Source: a bacterium
GTDB taxonomy: Bacteria; UBA8248
Reading direction: 5' to 3'
DNA length: 64,000 nt
Assembly (NCBI GenBank): GCA_965203325.1
Contig: OZ241875.1
Coordinates: 1,792,001 to 1,856,000 of the forward strand
A program made the translations under genes and the position numbers. The notes beneath the pieces were generated by a model, which saw only the letters and a program-made list of their open reading frames with translations, was not told the DNA's origin and ran no database searches. Below, one piece after another: positions 1 to 11,124 of the stretch (positions within the stretch are counted from its first letter, which is position 1; each line of letters begins with the position of its first letter).

Positions 1-1
1 C

Positions 2-202
2 GACCGGAAGAACTCGCACTTGAAGACGCTCACGGTGAAGAAGTACAAGCAGTATCTGGGCAAGTACTGGCAGGCGCACGAGATGAACATGGTGAACCAC
101 CTCACAGGCAAGAGCACCGTGCTGAGTTGGAAGGACTTCAAGTTCCGCACCAGGCTCAAAGCCAGCGAATTCACGCGAACCGGCCTGAAGCGGGTGCGCT
201 GA
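2..202 (+). CDS. Outer-membrane lipoprotein-sorting (LolA-like) protein, 3' part only
   Basis: Frame open from the window edge: DRKNSHLKTL...YW.AHEMNMVNHLTGKSTVL..KDFKF...L...F....LKRVR, the typical C-terminus of LolA-like proteins found next to MMPL/RND genes; its TGA overlaps the next ATG. Confidence 0.7.
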   Translation, partial: DRKNSHLKTLTVKKYKQYLGKYWQAHEMNMVNHLTGKSTVLSWKDFKFRTRLKASEFTRTGLKRVR

Positions 203-1458
203 TGCCGCCCCGCGCCGCTTTTCCCCGCGCGGTGCTGGCCGCCGTCCCCATCCTGGCCGTTTTCCTTTTCATCGGGACGAGCCTCGGGGCCGAAAGCATC
301 GAGCACGAACTCTCCGGCAGCCTGGACGTCGACGGCCGGTGGTATCCCCAAACAGGCGCCCATCCCGAACAGCGCGCGCACGCGAGCGGCTTCGCAGCGG
401 AGCCGAAGCTCCATCTCGAAGGCGGGGGGAACTGGAGTTTCACGATCTCGCCGTTTTTCCGCTACGACGGCGCGGACTCACGCCGCACCCACGCCGATTT
501 GCGCGAGGCCTATCTTCTCATGTTCGGTGAAGCCGGCGACGGGGAATGGGAGTTGCGCCTGGGTGTGGACCGCGTGTTCTGGGGCGTCACCGAATCGCAG
601 CACCTGGTCGACATCATCAACCAGACCGACCTCGTCGAGCATCCCAACAAGGAAAGCAAGCTGGGCCAGCCCATGGCCCACCTCACCTGGTCGGCGGAGT
701 GGGGCATCCTGGAGTTTTTCGCCCTGACCTATCACCGCGCGCGCACCTATCCGGGCCGCCACGGCCGCCTGCGCTCCTCGATTCCCATAGACGACGAGCA
801 CGTCTCATACGAGAACGCCGCCGGGGAGTGGCGCGTGGACCTCGCCGCCCGCTACAGCCACAGTTTCGGGCCTTTCGATTTAGGCCTCAGCGTATTCGAC
901 GGCACCAGCCGGGATCCCTTTATCACCCCGCACCTGGACGAGCGCGGCGCGCTGACCCTGCGCCAGCACTACGAACCAATCCTTCAGTTCAGCGTGGACG
1001 CCCAGCTCACAATCGAGTCGTGGCTGCTCAAGCTCGAAGCCCTTCACCGCGAAGGCGCGCGGAACCTCCTGGGAATGGAAGAGGACTACGCCGCTTTCGT
1101 CATGGGCGGGGAGTACACCTTCAATTCCATCTGGGGCTCGGCCGCCGACCTCGGCCTCCTCGCCGAATGGAATTACGACGAGCGGCGCGAGCGTTCGAAC
1201 TCCGAGTTCCAGAACGACCTCTTCTACGCCGTGCGCCTGGGACTCAACGACGCCCAGAGCACGGAGATCATCGCCGGCGTTCTCGCGGACGCGGATCATT
1301 CCACGCGCACCATGAGCTTCGAACTGAGGCGCCGCCTCTCGGACCAGTGGTCCATGAAGCTCGAAGCGATTGTGCTGATGGACGTGGATGAGGAAGACAT
1401 CATCTACGACACGAGGCGGGACAGCTTCGTGGCCCTGAACGTGACGTACAATTTCTAG
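202..1458 (+). CDS. Putative outer-membrane beta-barrel protein (MMPL/LolA-like associated)
   Basis: ATG at 202 overlaps the upstream stop; signal-peptide-like N-terminus; DLREAY / FWGV..S..LVDIINQ motifs; C-terminal alternating strand ending in Phe (VALNVTYNF). Confidence 0.7.
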   Translation: MPPRAAFPRAVLAAVPILAVFLFIGTSLGAESIEHELSGSLDVDGRWYPQTGAHPEQRAHASGFAAEPKLHLEGGGNWSFTISPFFRYDGADSRRTHADLREAYLLMFGEAGDGEWELRLGVDRVFWGVTESQHLVDIINQTDLVEHPNKESKLGQPMAHLTWSAEWGILEFFALTYHRARTYPGRHGRLRSSIPIDDEHVSYENAAGEWRVDLAARYSHSFGPFDLGLSVFDGTSRDPFITPHLDERGALTLRQHYEPILQFSVDAQLTIESWLLKLEALHREGARNLLGMEEDYAAFVMGGEYTFNSIWGSAADLGLLAEWNYDERRERSNSEFQNDLFYAVRLGLNDAQSTEIIAGVLADADHSTRTMSFELRRRLSDQWSMKLEAIVLMDVDEEDIIYDTRRDSFVALNVTYNF

Positions 1459-1538: not shown

Positions 1539-3587
1539 TCAGGAAGTGAGGGCGACCGCCCGTTGGTCGCTTTCCGCCCGGTCACCCACCGCCCGATCAG
1601 ATGAGAAGATCGGGCGCTTCGACTTGATTCGGAGCTTGAGGCTCTTGCGAGGGGTGCAGGTCGGGAACGGATTGATTTTGACCGGGTAGCTCGATGGCAG
1701 CACTTCAAGCTCGAAGTAGTAGGCGATCATCAAAAGGTTGAGCGTCATTTGATATTCCGCCACTCTCGGGCCGAGGCAGGTGTGCGTACCGAAACCGAAC
1801 GCCCCGTAAGCCCCGTGTTTCTTGTGCTCCTCGCGCCCGGGAAGATACCGGTCGATGTCGAACTTCTGCGGATCCGGATAGTTCTCCTCCATGTAGTGCA
1901 CGGCGGTGGACGCCAGCACGACGCGAGCATCGAGGGGTAGTTCATAACCCTCCACGATGCAGCTGTTCATGACGGTTCTCAACTGCAACGGCACGCTAGG
2001 GTAGATCCGAAGGGTTTCGAGAATCAGCCGGTGGGCGGTGTCGATGGCCTCAGGCGTGATGTCCTCCGGATCGGGGTCTCCTTCGGCGAACAGCGCCTCG
2101 GCTTCCCTGCGCACGCGCTGAAAGACGTCCGGATGGGAGACCATCAAATAGAGCCCGAACGCGACGGCGGTGCCCATATACATGGCCGCGACGAACGGTA
2201 TGATCATCATGAACCTGGTATCGGTATCCGGAAAGTACTGCGGGTCGCTGGCGTGCAGGCTGAGCAGGTCGTCGATCAGGTCGCGGGGCTGGTTTTCACG
2301 CTGCGCCGGGGTGTGCGAGTTCCGGATCATGGAATAGACGTGGTCGATTCGCCGCCGGATGGCTTGCATTCGCGGCGTTCGCATGAAGAACTTCGGCAAA
2401 ATCTTCTGCGCGTAGGTGATCAACATGCGGTTCTTGTATTTGTGGATGTCGTCCACGTATTCTGAAAAGTCCATGCTGAACAGGAGCCGGGATACCTGGC
2501 CGGACATGAGGGTGCGGCTTGCGTCCTTGGCGACGAGCACGTCGCCCACGTTCCACGAATCAAGCGCAAGCCGTATCTCTTCGAACAGATCTCCGAGACG
2601 GTCGTTCAGGCGGCTCCGGGAGGAGGCCATCTGGAACGCCTTGCGCATACGGAAGTGTTCGGCCCCGTCCATGCCCGGCAGGCTTCTCGACGCGCCGAGC
2701 ACGGTCTCCATCCCCTCCATGGTTTCCTTCGATCGCAGGTGCATCCGACCATTCCGGTTGACCCAGATGTTCGCATCGTTCCCGGCGATGACGAAAACTC
2801 TCTTCTTGGAAAAGGGAGCCTTGATCACGAAGACCGGGCCGTAGTCGCGGTAAAGGTCGGCCAGCAGTCTGGACGTATTCCCTTGCCAAAGTGAATCTTT
2901 GCGGAGCATTTTCAACAGGCTCACGTTGGGAATGGGTTTCGTCGCTATCGCGATGGAGCGACTGACCGATGTCTCCGCGACGGCGGTGGCGACGGATCGA
3001 CTGATGCGGTCCAGCATGCCCAGCAGTTCGATACGCTCGCGTGAAGCCTCGTAGTCGCGCGGTTGCAGAAGAAACCTGAATGCGTCGCAGGCATCGGCAA
3101 GTCCGATGATGATGGCGTCACGGGGATAGGGTATGTCGTCCCCCAAGATCGTCTCGACGATCCGCTGGCGGACTATCGACCGGGACTCGCCATTGGACAT
3201 GCCGTTGTCCGCTTTCGCCGCGTCTCGCGAGAGAGACCAGAAACCGCCGTTCGTATAGTACAGGACCCCGTTTTTCGACAACCGTTCGAGAGAATGATAC
3301 AGGATATCATCCGACGTACCGGCGATTTTCTCGACCCAGTAACTGACGGTGCGTGGCTCCGGATCGGCGGCAATGGTCGCCAGAACGGGGTCGAGGAGAT
3401 CGTCTCCCATAGGTGATGGATCGTCCAACGAAAGCATCTCTTGAGCGGTGTCGATACGGGACTCGAGGTCGAGGTCCGCCAGCGCGGCGCCGGCGAGAAC
3501 GCACGAGAGATTCCAGCCCGCCACCTGTTCGAGATAGCCGCTCTCTTCGTTCAGCAACAGGAGTATGATTTCTTCCGTCAGCCTCAT
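1539..3587 (-). CDS. GPP34/GOLPH3-like domain fused to cytochrome P450
   Basis: N-terminal ~210 aa begins MRLTEEIILLLLNEESG..LAGAALADLDLESRID..GDDLLD (GPP34 pattern); C-terminal P450 with ETLR (ExxR), DPQKFDIDRY and heme motif FGFGTHTCLG. Start placed at ATG 3587 after a GAGAGG RBS-like sequence. Confidence 0.85.
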   Translation of the reverse strand: MRLTEEIILLLLNEESGYLEQVAGWNLSCVLAGAALADLDLESRIDTAQEMLSLDDPSPMGDDLLDPVLATIAADPEPRTVSYWVEKIAGTSDDILYHSLERLSKNGVLYYTNGGFWSLSRDAAKADNGMSNGESRSIVRQRIVETILGDDIPYPRDAIIIGLADACDAFRFLLQPRDYEASRERIELLGMLDRISRSVATAVAETSVSRSIAIATKPIPNVSLLKMLRKDSLWQGNTSRLLADLYRDYGPVFVIKAPFSKKRVFVIAGNDANIWVNRNGRMHLRSKETMEGMETVLGASRSLPGMDGAEHFRMRKAFQMASSRSRLNDRLGDLFEEIRLALDSWNVGDVLVAKDASRTLMSGQVSRLLFSMDFSEYVDDIHKYKNRMLITYAQKILPKFFMRTPRMQAIRRRIDHVYSMIRNSHTPAQRENQPRDLIDDLLSLHASDPQYFPDTDTRFMMIIPFVAAMYMGTAVAFGLYLMVSHPDVFQRVRREAEALFAEGDPDPEDITPEAIDTAHRLILETLRIYPSVPLQLRTVMNSCIVEGYELPLDARVVLASTAVHYMEENYPDPQKFDIDRYLPGREEHKKHGAYGAFGFGTHTCLGPRVAEYQMTLNLLMIAYYFELEVLPSSYPVKINPFPTCTPRKSLKLRIKSKRPIFSSDRAVGDRAESDQRAVALTS

Positions 3588-3687: not shown

Positions 3688-3723
3688 GGGGCCATTATGG
3701 CCCAGTAAAACGATTGATTTCAA
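3688..3723 (-). promoter_or_regulatory. Putative sigma70 promoter of the GPP34-P450 gene
   Basis: Minus strand TTGAAA-18 nt-CATAAT; GGGCCA-tta-TGGCCC palindrome over the -10; near-identical element at 7345-7380. Confidence 0.55.
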
Positions 3724-3774: not shown

Positions 3775-3958
3775 GAGGTCGTTGAAACAGTCCCGATTTT
3801 CAGGGGGTGGAGGGGCAATCAAATCGACCGGGGAGGCGCCGCCCCGTAGGGACAGGCCTCCGTGCCTGTCCTGATTCGAACCATCCCGCACCTGATTCGA
3901 ACCATCCCGCAAAAGGACAACCACAACACCGACCAACCACGGGTTTTTCAACAGCCCC
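3775..3958. repeat. MITE-like element (copy 1) with GTAG-type REP hairpin and 21-bp tandem duplication
   Basis: Ends GAGGTCGTTGAAACAGTCCC / GGGTTTTTCAACAGCCCC; internal GTAGGGACAGGC..GCCTGTCC hairpin; CCTGATTCGAACCATCCCGCA x2 (3870-3911). Confidence 0.65.
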
Positions 3959-4699
3959 CTATCCGCCGCCCATGGCCGCGAGCCGCTCGACCGCTTTTTG
4001 GTGAATCAGCCGCTCCAAGGCGTCTTCGGGCGGTAATTTTACCGCGCGCTCGAGCAGGCCGCGCGCCCTTGCGCGGTTCTTATCGGCATCCAGGCTCAGA
4101 AGACCGAGCGCGTACTCGAACAGCGCCGATTTGTCCCGAGGCACCAGTTCGAGCGCCCGCCCGAAATGGGCGAGCGCCTCCTCTTCGCTCGCCCCGTAGA
4201 GCAGACCGGCGAAGAATCCCCCTGCGCCGACGGCACCCGCATGCCAAGCGGCCAGGCTGACGTGGGCGGCCGCCATTTTCGGGTCCAGGCGAAGCGCCTC
4301 CTGAATCGCATCGCGCACTTTGGTTGCGTAACCCTCCTTGAGCGCCTTAAGCGCGCCGCCCACCTGCGCCTGGCGGCCCATGGCGTGGGCCAATTGGAGA
4401 TGGGCCTCGGGGTTGGCCGCGTCCAGCCGAACCGCCTCCCGCGCGAGTTTCTCGGCCCGCTTGAACAAGCCTGCTTTTTCACCCTCCGGCGCGATGTAGT
4501 AGCCGTGAATCGCCAGTGAATCGGCGGCCAAGGCATAGCCCTCCGAGGTTGCGATAACCCGGGCGAGATCGGCGGCATCCACGAAGCGGCCCTCGGCATA
4601 CGCGGCGCGCGCCTCTTCGATCGACTGCGCGCAGGCATTCCCCGCAAACAAGAACGTGCAGGCAATTGTCAGGTAGATACGGAATAGGGACTTGTACAT
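3959..4699 (-). CDS. Secreted TPR-like repeat protein
   Basis: Signal peptide (..FAGNACA); helical repeats AREAVRLDAANPEAH, ALRLDPKMAAAH, ALELVP. Confidence 0.75.
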   Translation of the reverse strand: MYKSLFRIYLTIACTFLFAGNACAQSIEEARAAYAEGRFVDAADLARVIATSEGYALAADSLAIHGYYIAPEGEKAGLFKRAEKLAREAVRLDAANPEAHLQLAHAMGRQAQVGGALKALKEGYATKVRDAIQEALRLDPKMAAAHVSLAAWHAGAVGAGGFFAGLLYGASEEEALAHFGRALELVPRDKSALFEYALGLLSLDADKNRARARGLLERAVKLPPEDALERLIHQKAVERLAAMGGG

Positions 4700-4906
4700 T
4701 ATATACTTCCTGCGGACCGGCGGACTCCATGGCCGTTTCGGTTCAGGAGGGTATTATACGAAAATCGCAAGAGGCGTCCGTTTCGCAAAAAAGTCGTCTG
4801 CCCTGCTCCGGCTTGCGGGCGAGTATGAAATACATCGGGATGAAAATGCCGAGGCGGCCGGCTTCGCTGATGACCGCAGCGGCAAGGTTCATTCGGTGAG
4901 CATGGA

Positions 4907-7222
4907 TCATTGCGTCTTTCGGTCGAGGGCTATCAGCAGGGGCGGCAGGAGCAGCAAATCCAGGATCAGCGCGAAGCTGAGCGTGAGCGCCACCAGGAGG
5001 CCGAGCATCCAGGTGATCGCGAATCCCGACGTGGCGAACACCAGGAAGCCCAGCACCAGGATCGAGGTCGTGGAGAACAGCGCAAAACCTACCGAACGGA
5101 AGGTGGTGCGCACCGCCTCGGGTGAGGAAAGGCCCTCGCGGCGCCCCTTCAGATACTTGCTCATGAAGTGAATCGTGTCGTCGACGACGATCCCGAAGGC
5201 GATCGCGGTCACGAGAGAACCGGCGGGCCCCACCTCGCTGTAGAGATAACCCCAGACGCCGAAGGCCATGGCAGCGGGGATGAGGTTGGGCATGAGGCTG
5301 ATGAGGCCGAGGCGCAGGCTCTTGAAAATCCCGATCAGGATCAGCGAAATGAGGACCATGCCGGTAAGCGTGCCCCACAACATGCTCAAGGTGTTCCGAA
5401 TGGCCAGATGGGCGAAGATGAGGCTGTACCCCGACGCCCCTTTCGCGAGGCCGGGCGCGTTGGCGCTGAGCCATTTCTGCCCGCGCGCTTCGAGCGCGCG
5501 CAACTCCTCGGACTTGAGTCTTTTGAGTGTGACGGTCATGCGCGTGGCGGATTTGGCGACGTTGATGCGATTGTTGAGGTCCATGCCGAAGGGAACCGAA
5601 AACTCGTAGAGCAGCAGATACTGCGCGGCAAGCCGGGAGTTTTCCGGCAGCCGGTAGAAGGCGGGATTATCGCCGTTCATGTTCTTGTTGAGGCGCTTCA
5701 TGATGTCCGTAAACACCTGGACATGCGCCACTTCCGGCTGGGCGCGGTACCATCCGGCGAAAGCCTCGACTTTTTTCAGGTACGCAGGATCGGTGATTCC
5801 GGCTTCGCGCCCGGAGTCGAGGGAGTACTCCAGGGTTTCCACGCCGGTCAGGTTCTCGATGACGAAGTCCGTGTCGCGCCGGAACTCGTAACGCTCATCC
5901 AGATGCTGCGTCCAGTTGTCCGTCAGCTCGACGCGGGGCACACCCGCCACGAGCGCGATCGCAACGACGGCCGCAGACCAGAGCAGGAACGTGCGGCGCG
6001 CGACGACGAAGGCGCCGAGCCGATCGAAGAGGCCGGAACCCCCGGCGCCCGCCTGTCGCGCGCGCAATGGCAGGACCGACAGCAGCGCCGGCAGAAGCGT
6101 CATGGAATAGGCGTAGGCGCACAGCATGCCGAACGCCACCAGGTTGCCGAGTATCCGAAAAGGCGGAGAGTCCGAGGCGTTCATGCTGAGGAACCCGATG
6201 ATCGTCGTGGCCGTCGTCAGGAACACGGGCCAGGCATTGTGGCGCAGCGATTCGGCAATCGCCGCGTCCCTGTCCAGACCTCCCCGCATGCCTGAAACGA
6301 TCGAATCGACGACGTGGACCGAGTGCGCGATGGCGAGCGTCATGATGATGAGGGGAACGCTGGAGTTGGCTGCGTTGAGCACCAGGCCGATCCAGCCGAT
6401 GACGCCCATGGCCGAGATGACGGTGAAGATGACGACGGCGATGAGGGACAGCGTGCCGAACAGGGAGCGCAGGAGGATGGCGGCGACGAACACGATGACG
6501 AGGAATGCCGCGGGCGCGAGAATCCCCATATCGTCCTGGGCCGCTTCCGTCAGGACCTGGTTCACGAAGACGTTGCCGGTAACGTGATATTCGATGTCCG
6601 GGTGCTTCGCCCGGGCCTTGGCCAGGAGGCCGCGGATATGGTTGTAAATCCGTATCTCCGCGGCGTCGGAACGCTCGGGCAAGGCGAAAATGACGACCAG
6701 ACCGGCGACGCGCCCGTCTCCCGAGACGAGACGGCCTACGACACTGCTCTCGCTCAGCGCAATCTTCTTGATCCGCGCGAGGTCTTCGTCGCCGAGCGAG
6801 CCCGCGTCGTCCACGAGGCGCTCCACGATCAAGTCGTCCCCTTCCGCCTCGGTGTGGTTATAGTTGACGAGGGAGTCGACCCGCGTGGCCCTAGGCACGC
6901 GCCACAAGTCCTCGGTCAACTCTTCGATGGCGCCGAGCGCCTGCCGCGTGAATACCGACCCGCCCTTGGGCGCGACCGCGACCACCGCCGCATTGGTCGC
7001 CGAATAAGTGGCTTCCATGGCGTCGAATGCGACGAGTTCGGGATTGCCCTCGTCCAGCATGTCGCGCCAGTCGTTGGAGATAACGATGGTGCGGAGGCCG
7101 ACCGCCAGAACCAGCATGACGCCCAGGGCCGCCGCGAGGAAGAGCCATCGGCGCCGCAACAAGAACGCAATGTAGCGGTTTAGAGGTGCGGACATCAGGG
7201 GCCTCGCTATCCGGCGGCTCAT
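4907..7222 (-). CDS. MMPL/RND family transporter (sterol-sensing-like, HpnN/YdfJ type)
   Basis: 771 aa, duplicated TM-plus-periplasmic architecture; motifs TTATTIIGFLS and FGIVVDDTIHF. Start could be 7195. Confidence 0.9.
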   Translation of the reverse strand: MSRRIARPLMSAPLNRYIAFLLRRRWLFLAAALGVMLVLAVGLRTIVISNDWRDMLDEGNPELVAFDAMEATYSATNAAVVAVAPKGGSVFTRQALGAIEELTEDLWRVPRATRVDSLVNYNHTEAEGDDLIVERLVDDAGSLGDEDLARIKKIALSESSVVGRLVSGDGRVAGLVVIFALPERSDAAEIRIYNHIRGLLAKARAKHPDIEYHVTGNVFVNQVLTEAAQDDMGILAPAAFLVIVFVAAILLRSLFGTLSLIAVVIFTVISAMGVIGWIGLVLNAANSSVPLIIMTLAIAHSVHVVDSIVSGMRGGLDRDAAIAESLRHNAWPVFLTTATTIIGFLSMNASDSPPFRILGNLVAFGMLCAYAYSMTLLPALLSVLPLRARQAGAGGSGLFDRLGAFVVARRTFLLWSAAVVAIALVAGVPRVELTDNWTQHLDERYEFRRDTDFVIENLTGVETLEYSLDSGREAGITDPAYLKKVEAFAGWYRAQPEVAHVQVFTDIMKRLNKNMNGDNPAFYRLPENSRLAAQYLLLYEFSVPFGMDLNNRINVAKSATRMTVTLKRLKSEELRALEARGQKWLSANAPGLAKGASGYSLIFAHLAIRNTLSMLWGTLTGMVLISLILIGIFKSLRLGLISLMPNLIPAAMAFGVWGYLYSEVGPAGSLVTAIAFGIVVDDTIHFMSKYLKGRREGLSSPEAVRTTFRSVGFALFSTTSILVLGFLVFATSGFAITWMLGLLVALTLSFALILDLLLLPPLLIALDRKTQ

Positions 7223-7898: not shown

Positions 7899-8831
7899 AT
7901 GAAACTGATTTCAAAACGGGAAAACACTTATAAACAAATGATCGTTGCGGCGGTCGCTTTAGCCGTGTTTCTTCTCCCGGCGTTCGCACCCGATGCGCGC
8001 GCGGCGGATTCGAATGCGCAAGCTGAGGGTTCGAGATGGTACTTCGGCCTGAACGTGCCGGTCATGTTCATCGACGACTCGGACAGCGTCGAGAGCGGAG
8101 CAGCGCAAGCACAAGGAGCCCCCCTGCCAGTCCCATACAGGGCGAACGCCCTCACGGAATACGCTACGGGGTACAGGATCAGCGGCGTGGTGGGCCGTGA
8201 ATTCGGCGCGGGCCTGCGCGCCGACGCCGAGCTCTTCTTCGCGAGGGCCGAGGTCGACAAGCTGATCTACAAGGGACGGACCACAACCGTGCCGCAACTA
8301 GGCACTTTTGATATCGCTGGCGACCATTCCATCCCCGTCTCCGGCTCGGCGAGCCAGTTGGGCGCCATGGTGAACGTCTGGTACGACTTTAACGCGGGCT
8401 CCAAATGGAGGCCTTACATCGGCGGCGGCTTAGGACTCGTCCGGGTCGACTGGGGCGACGTGAAGTATGACCGCAACGAGGTCGCGCAGGGGGCTGCGAA
8501 CCAGCTTGCGCTCATCGGTGCGTGTGCGCAGCTTATGCAACCTCCGGGCTGCACTCTGCCTCCACCGGTCGAACAAGGAGCCCTGGCCCTGGCCACCCTG
8601 CCCCCGGGGACCGTGCCGGACCTTTCCGACACGGATACGGTGCTCGCCTTTCAACTCGGCGCGGGGGTGGGCTACCAGTATTCTGACGCCATTACCATTC
8701 AGTTGGGCTACCGCATGCTGAAAGCCGGCGATTTGGAGTTCAGCGGCAGTAGCGCCATGGGTTCAACGGCCACGGCGACGACGGAAATGCTGGTCCATCT
8801 CTTCGAGATAGGGATACGCTATCGGTTCTAG
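7899..8831 (+). CDS. Outer-membrane 8-stranded beta-barrel (opacity/OmpA-TM/P44-like)
   Basis: Signal peptide; MVNVWYDF..KWRPYIGGGLG, AFQLGAGVGYQ, C-terminal GIRYRF. Confidence 0.85.
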   Translation: MKLISKRENTYKQMIVAAVALAVFLLPAFAPDARAADSNAQAEGSRWYFGLNVPVMFIDDSDSVESGAAQAQGAPLPVPYRANALTEYATGYRISGVVGREFGAGLRADAELFFARAEVDKLIYKGRTTTVPQLGTFDIAGDHSIPVSGSASQLGAMVNVWYDFNAGSKWRPYIGGGLGLVRVDWGDVKYDRNEVAQGAANQLALIGACAQLMQPPGCTLPPPVEQGALALATLPPGTVPDLSDTDTVLAFQLGAGVGYQYSDAITIQLGYRMLKAGDLEFSGSSAMGSTATATTEMLVHLFEIGIRYRF

Positions 8832-8969: not shown

Positions 8970-10001
8970 ATGAAAACCGAGCGAATCGAACGCAGAGAAA
9001 CAGCCTCGCTTTACCCATTCCCGGAAGGCTGGTACTTCATCGCCACCCGAAAAACGATAGAGAAGAAGAAGCTGATCCAAAGAACCTGGATGGGCGAGCA
9101 GATCGTCGTCTGGTGCGACGATGAGGGGCGCATCTGCGTGGCCGAGGACCTCTGCCCGCACCTGGGTTCCGAACTCGGGCCCGAAGTCGGCGGCGTGGTG
9201 CGGGACGGCTGCCTCGTTTGTCCTTTTCACGGGTTCGAGTACGACGCCACCGGTCAATGCGTGGCCACGCCCTACGCGCCGGCGCCCAGAACCGCCAGGC
9301 TTAAGGTTTTCGAAACCCGCGAAATCCTGGGTCTCGTCTTCGCCTGGTGGGGGCTGGGCGGACGCCCGCCGCAATGGCGTCTCCCCGAAGAGCCGAGCGG
9401 AGACGACTGGAGCGACCTCGAAACCTGGAGCGTGCGGTTCTCGGGGCATCCCCAGGAAACGACCGAGAACTCCGTCGACGACGGACACCTGCGCTACGTG
9501 CACGGCTTCGGCAGCGTGAACCGGGTCGGAACGATAGAGGTGGAGGGTTCCTACCTCAAGAGCTGCTTCGACTTCACGCGAAGCCAGACCCTCGCCGGGA
9601 TGAACATCTACACATACGACGTTTCCGCCGTCACCCACGTGCACGGGCTGGGCTATTCGTTCGTCGAGGTTCACGAGGACGGCATCGGCATGGATACGCG
9701 CCTGTGGGTGCTCGCGACGCCTATCGACGGCGAGGTCATCGAAATGGTGCTGGTCAGCCAGCTAAAGCGAATACGGAAGCCGAAGCGGCCGATCTTCGGC
9801 ATGCGCTTTCTGCCGTCCGGTCTTCGCACCCGGCTCATGAACAAAATCATCATAGCGGCCCAGAAGCGCGACGTTTTATCGGACGTCGTCATATGGGACC
9901 GGAAACATTACGTGCCGCGCCCCCGCCTGTGCAGTTCCGACGGGGAGATTGGCGTCTTTCGGCGCTATTGCGAGCAGTTCTATCCGGATCGGACGGATTG
10001 A
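8970..10001 (+). CDS. Rieske non-heme iron oxygenase, KshA/Neverland (sterol hydroxylase/7-desaturase)-like
   Basis: Rieske CPHLG...CPFHG; mononuclear Fe ENSVDDGHLRYVH; C-terminal DVVIWDRKHY..DGEIGVFRRYCEQFY. Confidence 0.85.
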   Translation: MKTERIERRETASLYPFPEGWYFIATRKTIEKKKLIQRTWMGEQIVVWCDDEGRICVAEDLCPHLGSELGPEVGGVVRDGCLVCPFHGFEYDATGQCVATPYAPAPRTARLKVFETREILGLVFAWWGLGGRPPQWRLPEEPSGDDWSDLETWSVRFSGHPQETTENSVDDGHLRYVHGFGSVNRVGTIEVEGSYLKSCFDFTRSQTLAGMNIYTYDVSAVTHVHGLGYSFVEVHEDGIGMDTRLWVLATPIDGEVIEMVLVSQLKRIRKPKRPIFGMRFLPSGLRTRLMNKIIIAAQKRDVLSDVVIWDRKHYVPRPRLCSSDGEIGVFRRYCEQFYPDRTD

Positions 10002-10092: not shown

Positions 10093-11124
10093 ATGGAAAT
10101 AGGCAAACTATCGAAAGAGCTCAAGGATGCCTATCAAGAGGGGAACGTCACCCGCCGCGTGCAAGACTTCGAGGGCTGGATCGACCGGGCGGCGGAGTCC
10201 GACGGCGCGAGCGGGTACGACCACACCGAAACGGTGAAGGCCTACTACGACCTTTGCAGCGGTTTCATGGTGTGGGGTTGGGGCGAATCCCTGCATTTCG
10301 CGCCCCTCTCGCCGAACGAGAGTCTGGAGGACTCGAAAGTCCGGCATCAGCGGCTGATGATCGACAAACTGGAGTTGCAGAGGGGCATGACGGTGATCGA
10401 CGTCGGCTGCGGCATCGGCGGCCCGATGCGCCGCGTCGTCCGTGAGGCCGGCGTCCGGGTCGTCGGGATCAACATCAACAAAATCCAGCTGGAGAGGGCG
10501 AAGAGGTTGAACGCCGAGGCGGGGCTCGACCACATGATCGATTACGAGGCGTGCAGCTTCATGGATATGAGCACCATCGGGGACGAGGCGTTCGACCGGG
10601 GCTACGCCATCGAGTCGACGTGCCACGCGCCGGACAAACAACGCGCCTTCGCGGAGATATTCCGCGTCCTGAAACCCGGCGCCCTGTTCTGGGGCCAGGA
10701 GATGTGCCTGACGGAGAAGTTCGACCCGAACGACGCCCGGCACCGGACCATCAAGCGGGAGCTCATGCGCGGCATTGCGCTCAAGGAGGTCGCGACGTTC
10801 GGGGAAGTGAACCAGGCGCTCGAAGCGGCGGGATTCCAAGTCGTCGAAGGGATGGACCGGGAGGTCCGGGAGGGGCCGTCCACACCGTGGTATCAACCCA
10901 TGGAGAGTCGGCACGGGACGCTGGGCAACGCCTTGCGCAGGCTTCCGCAGGGCCGCAGGGCGGTCCTCGCGGGCTCGAAGCTGGCCGAGGTGGTCCGGCT
11001 GTTTCCGAAGGGTTCCGCGGAAGTCGTCCGGCTCCTGGATCGGACCGCGGACGCCTATGTCGCGGGCGGCAAATCGGGCATCTTCACGCCGCTGTACTGC
11101 TTCCTGGCCCGCAAACCCCTTTAG
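10093..11124 (+). CDS. Sterol C24-methyltransferase-like SAM-dependent methyltransferase (ERG6/SMT family)
   Basis: YYDL..F..WGWGESLHF (region I-like), IDVGCGIGGPMR (SAM binding), YAIESTCHAP (region III), LKPGALF, C-terminal GGKSGIFTPLY..ARKP. Confidence 0.85.
   Translation: MEIGKLSKELKDAYQEGNVTRRVQDFEGWIDRAAESDGASGYDHTETVKAYYDLCSGFMVWGWGESLHFAPLSPNESLEDSKVRHQRLMIDKLELQRGMTVIDVGCGIGGPMRRVVREAGVRVVGININKIQLERAKRLNAEAGLDHMIDYEACSFMDMSTIGDEAFDRGYAIESTCHAPDKQRAFAEIFRVLKPGALFWGQEMCLTEKFDPNDARHRTIKRELMRGIALKEVATFGEVNQALEAAGFQVVEGMDREVREGPSTPWYQPMESRHGTLGNALRRLPQGRRAVLAGSKLAEVVRLFPKGSAEVVRLLDRTADAYVAGGKSGIFTPLYCFLARKPL

Follow-up and report, generated by a model that had tools for sequence, protein, structure and literature searches.

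We analyzed a 64,000-nucleotide stretch of a bacterial genome (GTDB lineage UBA8248; assembly GCA_965203325.1, contig OZ241875.1, positions 1,792,001 to 1,856,000), which we call the window and whose own numbering is used below unless the contig is named. On its minus strand, positions 1539..3587 hold a single open reading frame (ORF) of 682 amino acids (aa) plus a TGA stop, free of internal stops, that encodes a GPP34 domain joined to a cytochrome P450. This gene, referred to here as the fusion, is of the GPP34_L type, an architecture already published as a set of 656 GPP34 plus P450 proteins found in sponge symbionts only and described there as a monophyletic group (Ferreira et al. 2025, Microbiome 13:4, PMC11706023). 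Judging from sequence and gene context, and with confidence that is about evenly balanced, we read the fusion as a putative cytoplasmic O2-dependent sterol oxidase in a sterol-tailoring cassette common to sponge-symbiont bacteria.

The fusion gene and its GPP34 domain

Translation is taken to start at the ATG at 3587, since a Shine-Dalgarno-like element (GAGAGG) lies approximately 8 nt upstream of it and homologues start at the corresponding site; for both reasons a longer form beginning at an in-frame ATG at 3695 (718 aa) was rejected. Pfam matches GPP34 over residues 3-205 (E 3.3e-27, 96 bits with a cut-off of 29) and p450 over residues 219-644 (E 9.9e-42), with PF05719 and PF00067 on one polypeptide as in GPP34_L. 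The GPP34/GOLPH3-fold domain was placed at aa 1-205 (2973..3587, minus strand) and the P450 domain at aa 215-660 (1608..2945, minus strand). The junction between them, at approximately 2930-2975, is spanned by single contigs in four of four sequencing runs from four studies, or in three of three if study P1, a possible source, is excluded. An artifact or frameshift as the origin of the fusion was rejected, since contigs span the junction and both Pfam domains occur in 117 of the best 120 homologues from a search yielding 822 proteins among 8000 candidates scored. The initial annotation, made from the sequence alone, had described a continuous ORF joining a GPP34-like N-terminus to a full P450, and these data bear it out.

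An AlphaFold2 model of the entire chain (pLDDT 85, pTM 0.82) matches P450 structures with a TM-score of approximately 0.8 by target length. A prediction of the two domains as a complex gave a median of 0.53, with one control at 0.44, and was used neither way. Taxa named among the homologues include Gammaproteobacteria, Acidimicrobiia, Dehalococcoidia, Actinomycetia and Chloroflexota, and the nearest genome loci are those of Nitrospinota metagenome-assembled genomes, at 90-92% identity, so that the bacterium itself is probably a sponge symbiont of the Nitrospinota. Near-identical DNA was found in runs of two studies (X3, X6) that are labeled sponge metagenome, which places the fusion, like GPP34_L, in sponge symbionts. 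RNA runs were absent from the list of data sets carrying this DNA. A search of plasmids returned one distant P450 and nothing else. Among the homologues, one protein (P0217) carries two GPP34 domains ahead of a canonical P450. A short repeated element with high contig depth, and with indels that vary by strain, lies at approximately 3840-3960 of the window, between the fusion and the next gene upstream.

The N-terminal domain has the GOLPH3 fold. It matches the profile of human GOLPH3 and yeast Vps74 at E 1.5e-12, and its model aligned to GOLPH3 and Vps74 in VIA-align with Z scores of 18.4 and 18.2 (root-mean-square deviation 2.3-2.4 A over 191 and 188 residues). These two proteins were the sole matches among 48,161 chains; the next Z was 4.3, and weak matches to MarR/winged-helix folds (Z <=4.3) were treated as background. 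The pocket for phosphatidylinositol 4-phosphate (PI4P) in GOLPH3 is formed by W81, R90, R171 and R174 (Wood et al., PMC2806290). In a profile alignment to PDB entry 3KN1 the three arginines correspond to positions 32, 93 and 96 of the fusion family, and no basic counterpart was found there in any of 117 sequences: the R90 site holds Ala or another small or hydrophobic residue (117/117), the R171 site Asp or Glu (113/117) and the R174 site Leu, Val, Ile or Met (117/117). The W81 site corresponds to W25 in one alignment and to V22 in another. The domain is acidic, with a net charge of -18 in the window protein and a median of -18 (range -25 to -10) in the family, and two cysteines are conserved, C29 in 117/117 and C167 in 114/117. 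When a leader-like N-terminus was looked for in the fusion none was seen, its strongest hydrophobic stretch being the I-helix of the P450.

These residues bear directly on the published hypothesis (PMC11706023) in which GPP34_L, as a secreted effector, would bind PI4P of the host and stop phagosomes from maturing. The fold itself, the restriction to sponge symbionts and the expression in 45 of 107 genomes that the paper reports, the sponge labels on the two runs with matching DNA, and the possible match of W25 to GOLPH3 W81 in one of the two alignments all speak for that hypothesis. Because the arginines are replaced, the domain is acidic and the N-terminus does not resemble a leader, however, PI4P binding and secretion appear unlikely for this protein; its gene context is metabolic, and the same paper reports that the GPP34s of symbionts arose in bacteria and were not acquired from the host. 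We regard the effector hypothesis as very improbable here. The initial annotation had proposed a membrane-targeted lipid desaturase/oxidase. Targeting of the PI4P type is not supported, given the missing arginines (117/117) and the acidic domain, whereas a desaturase or oxidase role is well supported by the gene context described below and can be narrowed to sterols.

Other GPP34 architectures were seen in the course of this work. A separate short GPP34 gene is present in this genome, and short GPP34 genes lie directly behind STAS-domain genes both here and in an alphaproteobacterium, while in another locus a fusion is followed by a STAS gene (L012:7880-8928; L111:5621-6620; L014:5488-5823); GPP34 and STAS genes may possibly form a regulatory pair. 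In one relative a GPP34 domain is joined to a Rieske-type ferredoxin domain (L100:6063-7007), an architecture also mentioned in PMC11706023, and such a protein could supply electrons to GPP34-P450s.

Active site and origin of the P450 domain

The P450 domain retains the heme-binding features of its superfamily, namely the P450 fold, the heme cysteine motif (Cys604) and the ExxR motif (residues 524-527). Among 121 aligned sequences Cys604 and the E524/R527 pair are invariant or nearly so, as are H311, R315, R537 and H602, the likely partners of the heme propionates; heme binding is therefore probably kept. The center of the I-helix, by contrast with canonical relatives, is rebuilt (aa 464-477; 2157..2198, minus strand): it is one residue shorter and lacks the acid-alcohol pair of a canonical O2-activating monooxygenase. 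Residues 464-475 read PFVAAMYMGTAV. Counting backwards from the helix end, Tyr470 stands in the place of the catalytic Thr and Met469 in that of the acid, and a HMMER alignment to CYP184A1 likewise sets Tyr470 on the catalytic Thr and leaves a one-residue gap at the acid. Comparison with two close canonical relatives (L038, L039) gave the same result. A pair hidden in another register was rejected on the strength of the CYP184A1 alignment, these two relatives and the representative set described below. Tyr occupies position 470 in 120 of 121 aligned sequences, position 469 is Asp or Glu in none of the 117 rows of alignment A1, and fusion paralogues linked to a cyclase gene also have the Tyr, with one extra residue upstream. 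We refer to fusions with this helix as Tyr-type. The lack of an acid-alcohol pair had been noted in the initial annotation and holds up. Three things that would speak against that annotation were looked for (an N-terminus that fails to match GPP34, a junction not spanned by reads, an acid-Thr pair elsewhere), and none of the three was found.

One alternative that follows from this active site is that the fusion is a reductase-independent P450, a peroxygenase or peroxide isomerase acting on sterol hydroperoxides or endoperoxides derived from the product of the neighboring Rieske enzyme, for example a delta-5,7 diene, with Tyr470 helping O-O cleavage. CYP74, CYP8A1 and CYP5A1 are reductase-independent comparators for such an enzyme. 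The acid and the Thr were lost together and the helix shortened on one branch, the cassette carries no redox partner, and the tightest linkage of the fusion is to the Rieske gene, all of which this alternative would account for. The Rieske enzyme, though, is likewise without a reductase in the cassette, so that the lack of one does not discriminate; the Cys pocket is of ordinary length; and the GPP34-Rieske ferredoxin fusion hints at an electron supply. We consider this alternative rather unlikely.

The bulky residue at the O2 site also raises the prospect of a non-catalytic sterol carrier or sensor, in which Tyr470 would block the distal site and the GPP34 domain would pass sterol to a transporter of the RND family or to a regulator. 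RND genes are frequent neighbors, short GPP34 genes lie behind STAS genes in two phyla, and two unrelated P450s fused to cyclic nucleotide (cNMP)-binding domains (P0304, P0289) independently have Tyr at the same site. Yet the heme ligand, propionate partners and ExxR motif are conserved as in enzymes, and the gene lies among those of catalytic tailoring enzymes, and we judge a carrier or sensor role quite unlikely. As an observation in its own right, three P450s with two fused cNMP-binding domains were encountered (P0304, P0289, P0301), of which the first two have lost the acid along with acquiring the Tyr and one is canonical.

In order to place the Tyr-type clade, 50%-identity representatives were searched with a profile, giving 150 proteins; 129 of 151, the query included, were kept at >=360 profile positions. 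The GPP34 fusions in this set comprise 27 with an acid and Thr or Ser, 6 with Tyr and 10 others, and the sequences without a GPP34 hit comprise 72 with an acid and Thr or Ser, 5 with Tyr (three fragments and two cNMP fusions) and 9 others. A quick IQ-TREE tree of the P450 domain was produced from 56 rows, picked with a profile built from the Tyr-type clade; the I-helix columns were included and support is given as SH-aLRT only, without bootstrap. The outgroup was taken from the representative search, the matches of a P450-only homologue search being fusions. A single branch (SH-aLRT 100) unites the 18 rows with a short helix, 16 of which have Tyr, and is nested in a 41-row branch (SH-aLRT 95) that contains all 21 canonical fusions and is itself nested within stand-alone P450s. 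Because the short-helix branch nests inside the canonical fusions, the fusion would have come first and the I-helix would have been rebuilt later, on a branch that spread among symbionts.

Named members of the outgroup are from Herpetosiphon and Ktedonobacterales. Stand-alone P450s of the Herpetosiphon/Chloroflexota type (e.g. WP_012190608.1), the nearest outgroup of the P450 domain, differ from the fusion in that the acid-Thr pair is retained and the GPP34 domain is absent; CYP184A1, CYP183 and CYP170 are more distant named relatives. The best PDB matches are CYP184A1 and CYP102-type structures, at approximately 20% identity. Among 401 genomes sampled from the class to which an alphaproteobacterial match belongs, eight matched at E 1e-70 or better, namely two Tyr-type fusions, each beside an MMPL gene, and six stand-alone P450s, with a canonical helix in the three that were displayed.

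The cassette and its linkage to the fusion

The fusion belongs to a cassette that spans 13.3 kb of the 4.39-Mb genome and in which every gene except the MMPL gene has one close copy. Two of its enzymes are encoded on the plus strand. At 8973..10001 is a Rieske oxygenase with a KshA_C domain (KshA/Neverland group), the sole PF19298 gene found in the genome. Its iron motif, E/D-x3-D-x2-H-x4-H, is common to KshA and Neverland (PMC7609953), its best PDB matches are KshA, and an Atlas search returned Rieske/KshA_C clusters along with one cluster auto-named 'cholesterol 7-desaturase' at rank 29. At 10093..11124 is a homologue of sterol C-24 methyltransferase (SMT; Sterol_MT_C) that departs from the Region I motif at one position. 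Sterol methylation in vitro has been reported for SMTs of sponge symbionts that are homologous to it (PMC10070321). A C-terminal remnant of a second SMT lies at 4743..4901 (minus), with 65% identity over 32 aa to the intact gene of relatives, in which this site is occupied by one or two complete copies.

An MMPL/RND transporter with sterol-sensing and Patched-type matches is encoded at 4907..7222 (minus), an outer-membrane beta-barrel protein (PF13505) at 7899..8831 (plus), and the 3' end of a gene for a LolA-like (PF17131/DUF1329) periplasmic protein at 1..202 (plus). The gene at 202..1458 (plus) encodes a secreted protein of 418 aa, without a Pfam match but conserved in the cassette, that is probably an outer-membrane barrel judging by its sequence. 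Upstream of the fusion and on the same strand, 3959..4699 (minus) encodes a TPR protein with an N-terminal hydrophobic leader. Just outside the window, at contig 1789813-1791168, is an FAD oxidoreductase (PF01593) that resembles LkcE and an 'aminooxidase' structure and no sterol enzyme.

The genome, which is 95.5% complete, yielded no cyclase-family match and no CYP51, and its P450s number two; one distant homologue of the ERG4/ERG24 family of sterol reductases is present far from the cassette (L120:925-2556). Since no cyclase was found in the genome, the fusion probably tailors imported sterol. The second P450 lies at approximately 3.707-3.714 Mb (L013:817-8418) in a cluster resembling those for ribosomally synthesized and post-translationally modified peptides, with a C39 peptidase ABC exporter, a nitrile-hydratase-leader peptide and a methyltransferase. 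Elsewhere in the window, between 48000 and 64000, the GC content falls from approximately 0.63 to 0.52-0.58 and then to 0.38 over the last 2 kb, and this part is possibly a foreign island.

Close relatives keep the cassette genes but in shuffled order. We counted neighbors at 24 full-length Tyr-type metagenomic loci of 28, having dropped two fragments (L036, L041), a canonical fusion (L038) and a stand-alone P450 (L039). An RND transporter of the MMPL or AcrB type, at 16 of the 24, is the single commonest neighbor, followed by Rieske-KshA (14), SMT (7), the FAD enzyme (4) and a squalene epoxidase-cyclase (2); neighbor identities were confirmed by Pfam. Some marker was present at 21 of the 24, and at least one sterol-specific gene at 18, compared with 0 of 51 unrelated P450 loci (3 of 51 without a score floor). 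After clustering, sterol-specific linkage was seen in 10 of 14 clusters at 70% identity and in 5 of 8 at 60%. Within the bacterium's own phylum, 14 of 51 genomes have the fusion (one as a fragment). The Rieske gene occurs in 13 genomes, every one with the fusion, SMT in 11 (10 with the fusion), and a squalene epoxidase-cyclase fusion (E=0) in five, again all with the GPP34-P450 fusion.

Linkage to genes for sterol synthesis itself was found repeatedly. In three genomes (G014, G018, G027) a fusion paralogue lies approximately 210 bp downstream of the cyclase gene on the same strand. At two loci (L006, L035) the fusion stands beside cyclase, CYP51-like, ERG24, SdmA and SdmB genes and at a third (L040) beside cyclase, CYP51-like and SMT genes. 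The fusions of L006 (92% identical to P0001), of L035 together with L093-L095, and of L040 represent three subclades in the tree, and the sterol genes next to them correspond to the clusters of steroid genes (CSG) of PMC9531527. At L093-L095 a squalene epoxidase-cyclase fusion gene is followed directly by a Tyr-type GPP34-P450 gene and a converging MMPL gene, and no CYP51, ERG24 or SdmAB was found within the 20 kb fetched. Variant cassettes at L097 and L101 contain genes for MpaB/Lcp-type oxygenases (PF09995) and extra MMPL genes, and the fusion copies there appear truncated.

The neighbors also allow for a substrate other than a sterol, such as a fatty acid, an isoprenoid or another membrane lipid of the same export module. 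The best structural and sequence matches of the P450 domain include fatty-acid P450s, canonical stand-alone relatives lie among acyl-CoA genes, the FAD neighbor resembles no sterol enzyme, and transporters outnumber every other neighbor. That fusions of three subclades lie, again and again, right beside cyclase, CYP51-like, ERG24, SdmAB and SMT genes argues the other way, and a non-sterol substrate seems unlikely to us.

Proposed role and relation to known systems

Several observations weigh against a sterol oxidase. The substrate is assigned from gene context, and the P450 domain is no nearer to CYP51 than to fatty-acid P450s. Loss of both the acid and the Thr from a shortened helix speaks against ordinary O2 activation, and no ferredoxin or reductase gene was found among the conserved cassette members. 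The Rieske protein cannot be assigned to C7-desaturases as opposed to 9-alpha-hydroxylases (Neverland versus KshA), and in the window SMT the first Phe of the Region I motif is replaced by Leu, although all functional SMTs keep this motif and deviations from it occur in inactive ones (preprint 10.64898/2025.12.19.695621). Three of the 24 Tyr-type loci (L014, L020, L022) have no marker and six have no sterol-specific gene. The control was lenient, its queries having come from the family's own neighbors and only 23 of the 51 control loci reaching 8 kb, and the matches in the phylum all fall within one genus and are hence not independent. Finally, stand-alone P450 relatives lie, as read from sequence, among catabolic genes of the acyl-CoA and isoprenoid types, and four of the six from the alphaproteobacterial class are found among genes of the acyl-CoA type.

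Under the sterol-oxidase reading, sterol supplied by the host or by other symbionts would cross the envelope by way of the MMPL, LolA-like and barrel proteins; alkylation at C-24 would fall to the methyltransferase, and oxidation or desaturation of the ring at C7(8) or C9 to the Rieske enzyme. The fusion P450 would then use O2 to oxidize the sterol further, drawing electrons from ferredoxins whose genes lie elsewhere, with Tyr470 replacing the lost Thr as a hydrogen-bond or proton relay and helping to position the substrate. The GPP34 domain, instead of reading PI4P, may dock the enzyme to membranes or partner proteins or serve as an adaptor to them, and the product would be exported or inserted into the membrane. 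In Capsaspora, imported cholesterol is turned into ergosterol by an SMT together with a C7-desaturase of the Rieske type and a C22-desaturase of the P450 type (PMC4967820). Because that set uses these three enzymes, side-chain desaturation of the C22 type, which would complete a Rieske/P450/SMT set, is our best single guess at the reaction, by analogy as opposed to descent, and tentatively. It is possible, though doubtful at present, that the Tyr-type P450 with its bulge-free I-helix, the Neverland-like Rieske enzyme and SMT form a mobile module that makes and exports delta-5,7,22 C-24-alkylated or peroxide-rearranged sterols from imported cholesterol-type sterols.

If this is so, the cassette would be a bacterial sterol-tailoring route convergent with that of eukaryotes and possibly the origin of unusual sterols in sponges, and it would give a bacterial GPP34 domain its first biochemical role. 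It would bear on who makes the modified sterols of demosponges, a matter relevant to sterane biomarkers. Because its Thr site is fixed as Tyr and the canonical sister fusions can serve as natural controls, this P450 is also a good model of how oxygen or peroxides may be activated in other ways, and the sterol-tailoring role is directly testable by standard P450 assays.

Searches of the literature for GPP34 with P450, and for GPP34 with sterol and symbiont, found no relevant paper besides PMC11706023. The statement in the initial annotation that no characterized enzyme has this architecture holds in the literature searched, although the architecture itself has been published. In PMC11706023 'sterol' and 'steroid' occur zero times in the main text and 'sterol' zero times in the spreadsheet; flanking-gene figure S11 (a PDF supplement), which could bear on the novelty of the context, lay outside the term search. 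The parts of that paper covered contain no discussion of the I-helix or of the PI4P residues. Neither the Tyr-type active site, nor its derivation from canonical fusions, nor the sterol cassette was found in the published literature searched.

With GPP34_L the fusion has its two-domain architecture and its habitat in common, and the GPP34-Rieske fusion described in PMC11706023 is present in a relative. The data presented here point in addition to a sterol cassette and to two grades of fusion, canonical and Tyr-type, and the residues and neighbors seen here conflict with the manipulation of host PI4P proposed in print for this abundant 656-protein family. GOLPH3 and Vps74 (PDB 3KN1, 2ZIH; PMC2806290) have the same fold as the N-terminal domain, which differs from them in its low identity (20-24%), in its missing arginines, in the loss of approximately 10 residues before the R171 helix, in its acidity and in being joined to a P450. 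Among sterol P450s, CYP51 has a His-Thr pair that the fusion lacks, together with CYP51-level similarity; the CYP51-like genes at L006, L035, L040 and L102 keep His-Thr, and the two in the tree fall on a long separate branch. CYP61 and CYP710 have a non-canonical I-helix in which the acid is kept, and are anchored in the endoplasmic reticulum. Neither was among the 60 PDB matches shown, the comparison set held no CYP61/710 sequence, and the nearest relatives of the fusion are bacterial canonical P450s, so that membership in CYP61/710 is unlikely.

Two further systems come from the same hosts. Clusters of steroid genes have been described in Ircinia symbionts (PMC9531527) and SMT clusters in sponge symbionts (PMC10070321), and genes of these kinds adjoin the fusion at L006, L035, L040 and L093-L095, whereas the present genome, in which no cyclase or CYP51 was found, has only the tailoring part. 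GPP34 is mentioned zero times in PMC9531527, P450 and Rieske zero times in the main text of PMC10070321, and GPP34 and P450 zero times in its readable supplements. With the CYP61/CYP710 enzyme of the Capsaspora set (PMC4967820) a comparison also suggested by the initial annotation, the likeness is one of function, in that a P450, an SMT and a sterol desaturase of the Rieske type act together on imported sterol. There is no sequence evidence of kinship between the two, and the fusion derives from bacterial P450s whose acid-Thr pair is normal.

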